Made by a program: the position numbers and the translations under genes. Source: Escherichia coli (GTDB taxonomy: Bacteria; Pseudomonadota; Gammaproteobacteria; Enterobacterales; Enterobacteriaceae). Taken from it: DNA of 64,000 nucleotides. Shown here in pieces: positions 29,528 through 33,354 of the stretch (its first letter is position 1; every line of letters begins with the position of its first letter). Location: NCBI RefSeq assembly GCF_003019035.1, contig NZ_CP027447.1, one strand, 5' to 3'. The notes beneath the pieces were generated by a model, which made no database searches, was not told where the DNA came from, and worked only from the letters and a program-made list of their open reading frames with translations.

Positions 29528-30301
29528 TCAGAATTTCCAGGTCAGATGGGCTGCAAGTTGCAGACCGTTATAATCATCGGTTGGGGTGTCGTACCACACT
29601 TTACCTGCCGTCAGCCCGAGATTAAGTTGCTCAGTCAGCGGTTGAATACGTTGCAGACTGACGCTCTTCATGCTGCCGTAGCGTGTTTCTGGCGTCCAGT
29701 CATAGGTGTAAGCGCCTGTTCCGCGGCTTAGCCATAGTTGCGTATAACCAGTGCCGCGCGGGTCATTCAGACGCACGGAAATCATATTGCTGTAACTACC
29801 ACCTGCATCGCTGGAGTCATAATGGGTATAGCGGTAGCTGGAGATCACCGGGCCAGTATAGAGGGATACGCCGCCTTGCCAGGCATCGACTTCGACATCA
29901 TCGTAATATTTAGTGTAGCGATAACCGGTCGTGAAAAGCGTTTTTGGCAACAGGGCCAGGTTAATATCCTGACGAAAATCCTGGCGGGCAAAGACCGGCG
30001 TATTATCCGCAAAGGCAATACCCGTTCGGGTTGTCAGCCAGTTATTCCATTTATACCAGACCGCACCCTGACCGCGAGTGGCATTGAAATGTTCAGTTTC
30101 ATAATCACGACGCCCCTGGGAAAGATTAAAAAGCAGCGTTGCGTTTTCAACTTTCGCCACCAGTTCAGCATACGCTAAATTACGATTGCCATGATCGCCA
30201 GAATAATCGGTAAAATCGTAGCCCGCGGTAATGGAAGTTAACCCGGCATAAGCGGGCAATGTGCTAAAAATGGCCGCCGCTAATAACGTCCGTTTTATCA
30301 T
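29528..30301 (-). CDS. yaiO: outer-membrane beta-barrel protein YaiO
   Basis: 257-aa ORF with signal peptide and C-terminal aromatic residue (…HLTWKF). Confidence 0.9.
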   Translation of the reverse strand: MIKRTLLAAAIFSTLPAYAGLTSITAGYDFTDYSGDHGNRNLAYAELVAKVENATLLFNLSQGRRDYETEHFNATRGQGAVWYKWNNWLTTRTGIAFADNTPVFARQDFRQDINLALLPKTLFTTGYRYTKYYDDVEVDAWQGGVSLYTGPVISSYRYTHYDSSDAGGSYSNMISVRLNDPRGTGYTQLWLSRGTGAYTYDWTPETRYGSMKSVSLQRIQPLTEQLNLGLTAGKVWYDTPTDDYNGLQLAAHLTWKF

Positions 30302-30302
30302 T

Positions 30303-31013
30303 TTAATCTCCTGTACGGATAAGTTCTTGTCGGAGTGAATAAGTTCCGGTAGGTAAATTACGTTCTACAATCACGCGCGGGCCAAGTTGCGTGTTCGGGG
30401 AAATAATTCGCCCAGGCAAAATAATAACTTGTACGCCAAGGCGTGAACGCTGTCCGATATAACAACCTAATTTATCGCATCCGGTAGCGATAATTCCCTC
30501 TGGAGTTCGAACAGACACGGGCTGTTCATCCAGACGATGATTACTGGTACGTACTTGTGCGCCCAAATATGCCTGGTTTGCGACTACCGAGTCGGCAATA
30601 AAACATTGCGGACCAATCGTTGCTTCCGCTTCAATAACCGCATTTTTAATTTCGGTGGCGAAACCAATTTTTACGCCATTGCTGATTATTGTGCCAGGAC
30701 GAATAAACGCATAATTACCTATCAGGCAGTTTGCGCCAATCACTACCGGACCCTGAATAACGGCACCGTGACAAATACGGGTATTCGCGCCGATAACAAC
30801 TTCACCTGCAGTTTCATCAATAATTACCTGGTCTGCAATCTGAATATTTTTCTCTTTAACATTAAGCTTCAGAAAGTTTTTCAGTTCCTGTGACAGAAGG
30901 TTGGGAATAAGCGGTTGACGCTTCCACCAGTGCGGAATAGCGGGTGGGTTTGTCGCGCTGAGGTTCGCGTCCAGTAAAAAAGGCAATAAGTCCATAAATA
31001 ATCCAGATGGCAT
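30303..31013 (-). CDS. yaiX: hexapeptide-repeat (left-handed beta-helix) acyl/acetyltransferase, uninterrupted
   Basis: Repeated [LIV]-G-x-x-x-x hexapeptides across the ORF; N-terminal 50 codons overlap the yaiP 3' end in another frame, so the true start is uncertain. Confidence 0.75.
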   Translation of the reverse strand: MPSGLFMDLLPFLLDANLSATNPPAIPHWWKRQPLIPNLLSQELKNFLKLNVKEKNIQIADQVIIDETAGEVVIGANTRICHGAVIQGPVVIGANCLIGNYAFIRPGTIISNGVKIGFATEIKNAVIEAEATIGPQCFIADSVVANQAYLGAQVRTSNHRLDEQPVSVRTPEGIIATGCDKLGCYIGQRSRLGVQVIILPGRIISPNTQLGPRVIVERNLPTGTYSLRQELIRTGD

Positions 31014-32058
31014 AAGCTAATAATACATACACAACGGAAAGCGGCGCTAAAGGCACCAACAACCAGCAACGATGAAACCAGGCGCTAAAAGCACCAATAA
31101 CACAAACTACGCCGACCCAGATAAGCGGAAACATTGCCAACACCACACCATGCGGCCCGGTGGTGATGAATTCATTAAACCAGGTAGTGAGATAAATCCC
31201 AACGCCATAAAGCACAACCAACAGCATAGGAAATATACTGAAGATACCGAAGCGGCTAAATAAAAGTCTTTTATGCAGGCGCATACAGACCGCGTAGCCC
31301 ACAATCCAACGCCGCCAGCGACGCCATTCCTCACGCGGGCTGTTGCATTCCTGTGGGTATACGATGCAGCGATTCGCCTGCCGAATACGATAGCCGTTTG
31401 CCACCAATGTCCAGGTGAGATCAAGGTCTTCGACTTTAGTACGATCAGAGAAACCGAACTTACGCAATACATCAGTACGGAACATCCCGCAGGCACCGCT
31501 GATAATAAACGGTGCGCCGCCCAGGAGCTGCTGTAGCGTGCGCTTCATAACAATCATCGGCAACTTTACGGTCGCGCGGATGTGCGGTAACAGCCCCGCG
31601 CCTTTCAACGCAGTAGAGGGAATGCCGCCTACGGCATCAGCACCGCGCTCAATTTCTGCCAGCATATAGCCCATTCCGTCTTGATCGGGCGGAACATAGG
31701 TGTCGGCATCACTTAAAAAAACCTGGTCGCAGGTGGCGTAATTGAGGCCATTCATCAGCGCACCACCTTTACCGGTATTTTTTTGCGTGACGGCAACAAA
31801 GCGGTCGCCCCATTTGCGTTTGACTTCCGCCATGACCGCTTCGGTATTGTCCGTGGAGCCGTCGTTAACGCAAATTACCCGGCAAAAATAAGGGTTACGC
31901 AGCAGATTATCCAGTGACTGCGCCAGACACGGGCCTTCGTTATAAGCAGGTATAATGGCGTCAATACAGCCTTTTTTTTGGCTGGGCTTACGCCTTAACG
32001 TACTCAGGAACCATAGCAATATTGCTACGGCCATACAGATAAATATCCAGGTTTTCAT
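30862..32058 (-). CDS. yaiP: family-2 glycosyltransferase with membrane-embedded C-terminal domain
   Basis: 398-aa ORF with N-terminal TM helix, DxD (LSDAD), an EWRRW motif resembling Q-x-x-R-W of processive GT2 synthases, and three C-terminal TM segments. Confidence 0.88.
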   Translation of the reverse strand: MKTWIFICMAVAILLWFLSTLRRKPSQKKGCIDAIIPAYNEGPCLAQSLDNLLRNPYFCRVICVNDGSTDNTEAVMAEVKRKWGDRFVAVTQKNTGKGGALMNGLNYATCDQVFLSDADTYVPPDQDGMGYMLAEIERGADAVGGIPSTALKGAGLLPHIRATVKLPMIVMKRTLQQLLGGAPFIISGACGMFRTDVLRKFGFSDRTKVEDLDLTWTLVANGYRIRQANRCIVYPQECNSPREEWRRWRRWIVGYAVCMRLHKRLLFSRFGIFSIFPMLLVVLYGVGIYLTTWFNEFITTGPHGVVLAMFPLIWVGVVCVIGAFSAWFHRCWLLVPLAPLSVVYVLLAYAIWIIYGLIAFFTGREPQRDKPTRYSALVEASTAYSQPSVTGTEKLSEA

Positions 32059-32067
32059 GCAATTTGC

Positions 32068-32739
32068 TCAAAGAATCATTTTATGAATTACAAAGCCTTC
32101 ACCCAGATCGCTATTGACCTGTTGCCCGCGAAATTGTGCAACTGCACGCAGGCGATCATGACGCATATAATCGCGTCGTTCCTGGCTTTTATGTTTTTTT
32201 AATGCAGCAAGTTTGGCTGTGAAATATTCTTCTTTAACGGATTCAAAAACCTGAGGCATAAATGAAAGCCAGGTACTCGGGGTTTCGTAGCCGAGAATTT
32301 GTGGAATAGTTCGGCAGGCAACCATTGAGGCTTGATAGACTGCAAGATGATCCTGATGGCGGTCAGCATCATGCATGGTGTATACACGAATGATTTCTAC
32401 ATCAGACGGAATTTGATTTTTAATGATGTCTTCCAGGGCGGAAATCATATCATTGAGCTGTAAATGAGCGCGGGTGTCAGCAAAATTAAGATGAATAGTT
32501 TGGTGGCACCCTAATATCTTTAGGGCGTTGCGCGATTCTTCATGGCGATCGATTATTCCATCTGTGCCAGAGTTGCCGGTAGTCATCACCACGGCTGCGA
32601 TATAAATTCCTTTTTGCGCAAGACGAGCAAGCGATGCGCCACAGCCTAATTCTATATCGTCAGGATGTGCGCCAATAGCAAGGATACCCTTTCTTTTATT
32701 TGCCGAAGAAAGGAGGGCTGAATCTAAAACCTTATCCAC
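32068..32739 (-). CDS. yaiS: PIG-L/LmbE-family N-acetylglucosaminyl deacetylase-like protein
   Basis: 223-aa ORF with LmbE-type motif ILAIGAHPDDIELGCG; 10 bp upstream of yaiP. Confidence 0.85.
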   Translation of the reverse strand: MDKVLDSALLSSANKRKGILAIGAHPDDIELGCGASLARLAQKGIYIAAVVMTTGNSGTDGIIDRHEESRNALKILGCHQTIHLNFADTRAHLQLNDMISALEDIIKNQIPSDVEIIRVYTMHDADRHQDHLAVYQASMVACRTIPQILGYETPSTWLSFMPQVFESVKEEYFTAKLAALKKHKSQERRDYMRHDRLRAVAQFRGQQVNSDLGEGFVIHKMIL

Positions 32740-33354
32740 TTAATGACACTCCATTTTATTTATTATACTACAAGCACAACGATGCACTCAGAGACGTAAT
32801 CTCTGGCGCAGCCAGATGCTAATTTATAAGTGTTAAATGTTGCTAATAATTGAAAAGCCAGGGCTTTCAGATCCGGGGGGGCGACTGGTTAATGTTTTTA
32901 TGCAATTCATATGTTAAGTGTTTGTATGTTTGGTATGTATAGTTATTTTGTTTTATACATTGTATTTAGATGTGATTTAGTTTGTCAATTAATTGCATTT
33001 AAAAAATATGTTCTGTGAACAAGTATTGTTTATATACATTATGTGAATGTAATATGCGAGTGATTGAGAATGATACAGTGATATATATAATGCGAATATA
33101 ATAGTTTTATTATATGTATTGATATTGATAGAAATAATGAAGTAATAAATCTCGTAATGTGGTTGTTTATGCATCACTAAAATGAAGTGTAGTAATTTTC
33201 CCAATTGTTAGAACGGAGTAATTGCATATTTAATCTTTCCTTTGCCGTTTTTTTGCTAAGAATAAAATCATCTGTGCGATAACGACTAATTCTTTTAATG
33301 AATGTTTTTATTCCTGAATACTGCTCCCATAACAAGACAGGGGAGCAGACAATC

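Follow-up and report, generated by a model that had tools for sequence, protein, structure and literature searches.

An unusually long out-of-frame overlap between yaiP and yaiX in Escherichia coli and the probable start of YaiX

Introduction

Where does the yaiX gene of Escherichia coli begin? The question arises in a window of 64,000 nucleotides (nt) from an E. coli genome (RefSeq assembly GCF_003019035.1, contig NZ_CP027447.1), the window being the whole stretch of DNA that was analyzed. Here yaiX, which encodes a hexapeptide-repeat protein of the left-handed beta-helix (LbH) type, follows yaiP, which encodes a membrane glycosyltransferase of family 2 (GT2), and the two reading frames run into one another. 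Four models of yaiX coexist in public databases, with lengths of 236, 230, 193 and 174 amino acids (aa), and they differ in where the protein is thought to start. From a comparison of the junction in related bacteria, we consider it likely, with a probability of roughly three in four, that yaiX starts at ATG 30995 within yaiP and encodes a protein of 230 aa, and that the long overlap would be the product of both the loss of a start and the loss of a stop. As proposed, the yaiX coding sequence (30303..30995, minus strand; start codon ATG at 30995-30993) encodes a predicted hexapeptide acetyltransferase, and the functional overlap covers 134 nt (30862..30995, minus strand), with yaiX in the +1 frame of yaiP.

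The published literature on yaiX covers the 71-aa fragment of strain K-12 and a repaired pseudogene, and does not treat the start site. When yaiX of K-12 is repaired, the cells are reported to clump during vegetative growth in a manner that needs YaiP (EcoGene 3.0 paper, PMC3531124, citing a meeting abstract). A "236-aa variant" of YaiX is mentioned in a 2026 paper (PMC13058169).

The overlapping reading frames

The yaiP coding sequence (30862..32058, minus strand) encodes 398 aa and ends with TAA at 30864-30862, whereas the longest yaiX open reading frame (ORF; 30303..31013, minus strand) encodes 236 aa. Pfam agrees with the assignment of both proteins. YaiP scores 98.6 bits against Glycos_transf_2 (PF00535; gathering cut-off 23.3), which places it among the GT2 enzymes, and YaiX scores 64.3 bits against Hexapep (PF00132; gathering cut-off 27), as a protein of tandem hexapeptide repeats, with a further match to LbH_EIF2B at 57.3 bits against a cut-off of 54.

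The original prediction for this DNA described an out-of-frame overlap of about 150 bp between the 3' end of yaiP and the 5' end of yaiX, and the ORF list bears this out: the two ORFs share 152 nt (30862..31013). With (32058-31013) mod 3 = 1, the frame of yaiX is offset from that of yaiP by one base in the downstream direction (the +1 frame). A codon scan also agrees that the only ATG codons of the yaiX frame, at 31013 and 30995, both lie inside yaiP, and that the stretch from the yaiP stop to the first hexapeptide repeats has neither ATG nor GTG in frame, nor, it can be added, TTG. From the upstream stop to residue 91, the frame contains ATG, GTG or TTG only as ATG 31013, ATG 30995 and TTG 30986, and none of the three occurs from codon 11 to codon 90 (counted, like the named YaiX residues below, on the 236-aa ORF). 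By itself, an open +1 frame of such a length is unremarkable by chance; it is the conservation pattern across relatives that exceeds chance.

At 30860-30864 (minus strand) the yaiP stop overlaps an ATG in the sequence TAATG, which resembles a coupled start. This ATG was rejected as a start for yaiX, being out of frame with it and opening an ORF of only 12 codons. The idea that a sequencing frameshift or indel in the A5 run at 30852-30848 might link it to yaiX was also rejected, because all relatives keep the same frame relation and because the yaiX frame is conserved well upstream. Coupling by termination and reinitiation across a short overlap does not describe the E. coli arrangement, in which the proposed start lies 134 nt from the yaiP stop; it describes only the non-enteric relatives, with an overlap of 14 nt.

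The junction in related bacteria

Loci were drawn from a scan of species-representative genomes (15), from contigs encoding homologs (8) and from a B2-phylogroup E. coli. The junction was compared in 22 related loci, of which six, with a complete read-out, are of a non-enteric type (Pseudomonas, Acinetobacter, Sphingomonas and proteobacterial metagenome-assembled genomes) and 16 are of an enterobacterial type (Escherichia, Citrobacter, Salmonella, Enterobacter, Superficieibacter and one Ignatzschineria assembly). Wherever a GT2 gene precedes the acetyltransferase gene, the latter lies in its +1 frame.

In the non-enteric type, the C-terminus of the GT2 protein reads TGxEPxRDKPTRYxxVV(A/E/G/D). 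The acetyltransferase starts at an ATG or GTG placed directly before TGG TGG, 14 nt ahead of the GT2 stop, in all six loci, and the stop itself falls 11 nt after the first Trp codon. The sequence CAT GTG GTG GGA TGA, for example, doubles as ATG TGG TGG, the Met-Trp-Trp (MWW) start of the acetyltransferase.

The enterobacterial type is built differently. The start before the two Trp codons (TGG TGG at 30924..30929, minus strand, in E. coli) is missing in all 16 loci, its place being taken in E. coli by CAC 30932-30930 (His28). The GT2 frame, again in 16/16, continues past the Trp codons, by 32-83 nt in the 15 loci measured. An ATG is also found 21-23 codons upstream of the Trp codons in every one of these loci; in E. 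coli the distance is 22 codons and the ATG is that at 30995, which is formed from the yaiP codons TAT GGA (Tyr355-Gly356). Both reading frames are intact across the overlap in all 16 loci, which span several genera, and the overlap measures 77-149 nt in the relatives, compared with 134 nt in E. coli. The ancestral position of the yaiP stop, TGA in non-enteric loci, is now the GCG codon for Ala380 of YaiP (30919..30921, minus strand), from which a lineage-specific tail of 19 codons leads to the new stop (30862..30921, minus strand).

Constraint in the two frames

Codon alignments were made for the 16 enterobacterial-type loci, which share ancestry, and the window statistics drawn from them are descriptive and carry no phylogenetic correction. 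Mean pairwise diversity at codon positions 1, 2 and 3 is 0.24, 0.13 and 0.57 in the yaiP-only part and 0.30, 0.20 and 0.61 in the yaiX-only part. Both represent the normal coding pattern, and this pattern shifts twice within the overlap. Expressed in yaiX codon positions, and with codons counted from ATG 30995, the values are 0.10, 0.17 and 0.21 for codons 1-9 (0.05, 0.03 and 0.17 when the divergent loci L022-L024 are left out), 0.13, 0.52 and 0.23 for codons 10-22, and 0.40, 0.39 and 0.55 from Trp29 to the yaiP stop.

The last of these segments follows the yaiX phase. Synonymous differences in the yaiX frame amount to 0.560 from Trp29 to the yaiP stop, compared with 0.563 in the yaiX-only part, and the YaiP tail encoded on the same DNA is 33% identical between pairs of sequences, yaiX being here the selected frame. 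Codons 10-22 (30930..30968, minus strand; A16 to H28), on the other hand, follow the yaiP phase, since the variable yaiX position 2 is yaiP position 3. They are constrained only in the yaiP frame (TGREPQRDKPTRYSAL) and end at the CAC codon that replaces the ancestral ATG/GTG start. Two features of this segment were discarded as evidence for yaiX. The openness of its yaiX frame is uninformative, because none of the conserved YaiP residues in it is encoded with T at codon position 2, which makes +1 stops impossible, and the conservation of its yaiX peptide is a by-product of the YaiP motif.

The first nine codons (30969..30995, minus strand) form an island of dual constraint, in which the yaiX peptide M-D-L-L-P-F-L-L-D lies over Y355-G363 of YaiP and the third positions of yaiP are frozen; TTG 30986-30984 and a T6 run at 30981-30976 (minus strand) also fall within it. 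As a measure of synonymous change we took, among yaiP codons for identical residues, the fraction with a synonymous difference. Over the nine codons from the ATG-bearing TAT this fraction is 0.136, as against 0.595 over the nine codons before and 0.572 in the non-overlapping part of yaiP, and none of the 348 nine-codon windows in the rest of yaiP is as low, the lowest being 0.389. In the Escherichia/Citrobacter subset the fraction over the same nine codons is 0.000. The TAT and both GGA glycine codons are kept in 16/16 loci and the third positions between them are nearly fixed, whereas the third positions of the 20 yaiP codons before TAT, including those from 31013 to 30995, are freely variable. 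In the non-enteric clade the same YaiP columns make use of CAC, CAT, TAT and TAC and of GGA, GGC and GGT, and in those members with lower GC the +1 frame is interrupted by stops ahead of MWW. With these columns unfrozen, the freeze is specific to the lineage that lacks the MWW start.

A crude comparison within E. coli, whose genomes are not phylogenetically independent, found at most one mismatch to the 134-nt overlap in 90.7% of genomes, the corresponding shares for neighboring segments being 76.3% and 81.4% (two within yaiP) and 74.6% (one within yaiX). Judged from the alignments as a whole, selection acts on the yaiX frame within the overlap, over and above the constraint that yaiP imposes.

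The original prediction had left three alternatives unranked, namely a genuine overlap, a non-canonical start and a relic N-terminus. The selection seen in the yaiX frame upstream of the yaiP stop, together with the conserved ATG 30995, favors the first, although the most likely length is 134 nt and not about 150. The notion of a relic holds for the lost MWW start, now His28, but not for the rest of the region.

A proposed history of the junction

The ancestor would have had the 14-nt overlap, with CAT GTG GTG Gnn TGA doubling as ATG TGG TGG. The enterobacterial-type lineage presumably lost the yaiX start, and initiation would have moved 21-23 codons upstream (22 in E. coli, where it would now take place 63 nt further up) to a new ATG built from the Tyr/His-Gly codons of yaiP (TAT GGA). 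The yaiP stop would have been lost too, so that termination now falls 57 nt later, with 19 added codons in E. coli, and the first 45 yaiX codons would lie, in the +1 frame, over the last 44 codons of yaiP and its stop. Three zones could then be recognized. Codons 1-9, with the consensus M-(D/E)-L-L-P-F-L-L-(D/E), appear to be constrained in both frames and may have acquired a constraint of their own; codons 10-22 would be a variable linker whose sequence is set by the conserved YaiP motif TGREPxRDKPTRY; and from Trp29 onward the old N-terminal segment of YaiX would be the selected frame, with the YaiP tail as its passenger. We infer that initiation at 30995 takes place without a real Shine-Dalgarno (SD) site, on mRNA that is A/U-rich and unusually unstructured.

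More tentatively, and with the odds somewhat against so full a reading, the 134 nt may represent a genuine translated overlap conserved across the Enterobacteriaceae, the first nine codons of which encode a peptide born by overprinting of the membrane-to-cytoplasm junction of YaiP and since then under its own selection. A possible role for such a nonapeptide is that of a tag by which the acetyltransferase docks to the synthase or the membrane.

The N-terminal segment of YaiX

A search of protein collections returned 526 relatives of YaiX. Alignment of the orthologs, which had been suggested as a way to find the conserved N-terminus, does locate one: relatives that share about 50% identity have a length of about 206 aa and start M-W-W-(R/N/S)-E-L, and their MWW aligns with E. 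coli H28-W29-W30. This places the N-terminus of the family 71 nt ahead of the yaiP stop of E. coli. Relatives from the candidate phyla radiation (L015, a Paceibacterota metagenome-assembled genome, and L014, one of Kaiserbacteria) share an MWW or VWW start, and in L015 the PIG-L deacetylase gene is followed at once by the acetyltransferase gene, without an intervening glycosyltransferase.

AlphaFold2, run on the 230-aa form with an alignment of 71 sequences, gave a model with a mean predicted local distance difference test score (pLDDT) of 90.6, and of 88-91 for residues 21-50 of that form, which take in the Trp-Trp region and what follows it. The predicted model has the LbH fold, and its best solved match is the LbH domain of ST0452 from Sulfolobus tokodaii (PDB 5z09, 2ggo), with a phmmer E of 8e-23 over YaiX residues 62-219 and, by Foldseek, an E of 8e-12 and a query-normalised TM-score of 0.71 at 34% identity. 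YaiX shares the hexapeptide-repeat left-handed beta-helix with ST0452 and with the C-terminal acetyltransferase domain of GlmU, but unlike them it has no nucleotidyltransferase domain, and its N-terminal segment of roughly 60 residues, the portion that the overlap encodes, is matched by no solved structure. Going by the model and the alignment, the segment under the yaiP tail is apparently a conserved and structured part of YaiX, and a start at codon 44 or codon 63, as in RefSeq, would remove some or all of it.

Signals for translation initiation

The mRNA around ATG 30995 is predicted to be open. A 63-nt stretch centered on this codon has a minimum free energy of -3.9 kcal/mol, compared with -13.9 +/- 4.4 kcal/mol across both genes, and ranks in the least structured 1.3%; the equivalent stretch falls in the least structured 10% at 10 of the 16 loci. 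A fold of 81 nt gives z = +1.8 against shuffles. The sole SD-like element is a GGA that derives from an invariant Trp codon of YaiP (31004-31002). Pairing with the anti-SD sequence amounts to -1.9 kcal/mol for yaiP and to -7.4 kcal/mol for yaiO, the next gene of the operon. With a weak SD and open mRNA, initiation at 30995 would rest on accessibility rather than on pairing with rRNA. Initiation of this SD-independent, accessibility-based kind appears compatible with published genome-wide data (PMC7043885).

Several observations weigh against a start at ATG 30995. Its SD pairing, at -3.1 kcal/mol, is at background level, as 39% of in-gene positions do as well; no internal promoter-like site was found in yaiP; and yaiX, yaiP, yaiS and yaiO have no entry in a 2026 N-terminomics data set. 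The first 20 residues of the 230-aa form reach a pLDDT of only 62-72. Codons 10-22 show no constraint in the yaiX frame, which fits a linker but also non-translation, while the nine-codon island could be explained by a function at the nucleotide level rather than by a peptide, and the nonapeptide is not kept in three loci (L022-L024). A number of relatives have extra ATGs near the Trp codons, at -4, -3, -2 and +2, which are possibly real starts; E. coli has none. Finally, RefSeq curates shorter models of yaiX.

Alternative explanations

These RefSeq models provide the alternative that survives best, although we regard it as unlikely. It holds that yaiX starts at CTG 30884 (30882..30884, minus strand; 193 aa), or at GTG 30827 in B2 strains (174 aa), that the frame upstream is an untranslated relic, and that the overlap amounts to 23 nt or to none. 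RefSeq annotates the gene in this way in thousands of genomes, and the CTG start is found in a RefSeq genome that is 100% identical here. Codon 44 is GTG in Citrobacter, and the mRNA at the CTG is likewise weakly structured, at -4.9 kcal/mol. However, CTG is a very poor initiator in E. coli, its AGGA sits just 1 nt upstream, and the pairing computed with the anti-SD comes to -1.9 kcal/mol. The non-canonical start that the original prediction had allowed for fares poorly on other grounds as well, as it would remove W29-E43, a confidently modeled stretch (pLDDT about 90) that has the periodicity of the yaiX frame and is conserved as far as the MWW of distant homologs, and it leaves the frozen synonymous sites of yaiP from ATG 30995 unexplained. 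The B2 start, at a codon that is GTA in the window (30825..30827, minus strand) and GTG in B2-phylogroup strains, where it gives the RefSeq model with zero overlap, is a single change of a synonymous type in a region otherwise identical upstream. The RefSeq models, at 193 aa and at 174 aa in B2, look truncated. The 230-aa start, for its part, is used by many GenBank, ENA and JGI gene calls, and its exact sequence is found on 530 contigs.

Slightly less probable again is a real overlap with a different start, at ATG 31013 (236 aa, 152 nt of overlap) or TTG 30986, used either instead of 30995 or alongside it. Each of the two lies in frame ahead of the Trp codons, TTG 30986 is conserved in most enterobacterial-type loci, the 236-aa model is present in some databases (PMC13058169), and a few database gene calls use the 31013 start. 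Against this, ATG 31013 (31011..31013, minus strand) is restricted to Escherichia, being absent from Citrobacter and every other genus, it shows no anti-SD pairing at all, and from 31013 to 30995 the yaiX frame is unconstrained, with yaiP third positions that vary freely. TTG 30986 does lie inside the frozen island, yet the freeze begins three codons earlier, at the ATG.

It is improbable, to a greater degree, that yaiX is simply decaying in E. coli, with its start lost and little or no translation, and with the observed conservation owed to constraint on yaiP and to recent ancestry. In favor of decay, yaiX is disrupted by IS2 in K-12, the locus is missing from about 10% of complete E. coli genomes, and a good ribosome-binding site was not found. 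Yet the ORF is intact across genera at 51-94% identity, the variation in its yaiX-only part is dominated by third positions (0.30, 0.20, 0.61), and constraint on yaiP cannot freeze yaiP's own synonymous sites; nor does decay sit well with the YaiP-dependent clumping reported for the repaired K-12 gene (PMC3531124).

Least probable of all, and very unlikely in our estimation, is a +1 ribosome shift on the U6 run (30981-30976), by which a YaiP-YaiX fusion would be made in place of free YaiX or in addition to it. Such a shift would suit the +1 position of yaiX and the weakness of the canonical initiation signals, and the run is slippery-looking (CCT TTT TTA in yaiX; GCC TTT TTT ACT in yaiP) and kept in most enterobacterial-type loci. 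However, the constraint starts at the conserved ATG, four codons before the run, which a frameshift does not predict; the run is broken in four loci (L021-L024); the ancestral homologs are separate proteins with their own start; and no stimulatory element was identified.

The yai operon and its surroundings

The neighborhood is that of E. coli frmRAB–yaiO–yaiX–yaiP–yaiS–tauA, with all yai genes on the minus strand, and the gene names match the RefSeq annotation of a 100%-identical E. coli genome. The operon's first gene, yaiS (32068..32739, minus strand), encodes a PIG-L family deacetylase according to the ORF list and Pfam, and the gene after yaiX, yaiO (29528..30301, minus strand), encodes an outer-membrane beta-barrel and has its strong SD site within the 3' end of yaiX. 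In Enterobacter sp. PGRG2 (L021:3141-3226), yaiX lacks its usual stop, encodes 241 aa with an unrelated C-terminal tail and runs 86 nt into yaiO, so that stop loss has created another long overlap within the operon.

In the window yaiS is an intact ORF of 223 codons, the protein of which is only 62% identical to the allele of a B2 strain, and in the same strain the adjoining yaiP/yaiX DNA is 96% identical to the window. This sequence comparison suggests a recombination boundary or an allele replacement directly upstream of yaiP. In RefSeq the window-type yaiS allele is labeled a pseudogene ("missing C-terminus"), and a hypothetical protein of 39 aa is annotated in addition on the other strand. 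Upstream of yaiS, at 32959-32988 (minus strand), lies a promoter-like sequence, TTGACA-18 nt-TACAAT, with 11/12 matches, which is a candidate operon promoter; the total count of promoter-like sites across the region is below shuffle expectation.

In the K-12-derived genomes DH5alpha and TUM1509, the match to a query of 30250-31250 is confined to its first 538 bases. The break, at about 30713, is consistent with the known IS2 interruption of yaiX, the yaiP-yaiX junction being kept in K-12. Within E. coli, 24-30 plasmid-borne matches to the locus were seen, and up to 7 places per genome. Citrobacter braakii ATCC 51113 carries the whole yaiS-P-X-O cluster twice (L005, L007), in copies that have diverged.

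Comparison with known systems

The yai operon resembles synthase-dependent exopolysaccharide operons such as pgaABCD and icaADBC. By this analogy, each would bring together a membrane GT2 synthase-like protein, a deacetylase and an outer-membrane beta-barrel, and aggregation has been reported for yai (PMC3531124); the yai operon differs in having a PIG-L type deacetylase and an LbH acetyltransferase.

With regard to overlaps, no real co-directional case of more than 60 bp emerged from a survey of 338 genomes, in which the longest one accepted was holD-rimI at up to 56 bp (PMC2478687). Like yaiP-yaiX, holD-rimI is a same-strand, out-of-frame overlap of a 3' end with a 5' end that is conserved in Enterobacteria with a genus-specific length, but it spans 32-56 nt as against 134 nt. 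The ortholog-length rule of that survey would flag yaiP-yaiX as an error of "5' and 3' extension". Conservation across genera and the signatures of selection, as read from the alignments, support the view that both extensions would be real evolutionary events.

The origin of overlaps by loss and replacement of start or stop codons is a described mechanism (Fonseca, Harris & Posada 2013, PMC3887535). In keeping with that model, the 3' end of yaiP grew after loss of its stop and the 5' end of yaiX after loss of its start, and old and new frames can be told apart by conservation. What goes beyond the model is that both events fell on one junction that already had a 14-nt overlap, and that nine new N-terminal codons are under a constraint of their own. 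The non-enteric overlap involves the same two genes in the same order and relative frame as in E. coli, but it is short and compatible with coupling by termination and reinitiation, and E. coli has lost both its start and its stop. The yaiP-yaiX junction is an unusually long case of a known overlap mechanism, and the mechanism itself is not new.

Significance

Long same-strand overlaps in bacteria are usually taken to be annotation errors and are trimmed automatically, and yaiP-yaiX represents a well-supported exception in the best-studied bacterium. If translated, it would have more than double the length of any co-directional overlap that the 2008 survey recognized as genuine, with both the start loss and the stop loss readable from living relatives. 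The correct start of yaiX is needed for the expression of YaiX in work on the yaiS-yaiP-yaiX-yaiO aggregation/exopolysaccharide operon, and the junction offers a test case for SD-independent initiation inside a translated gene.

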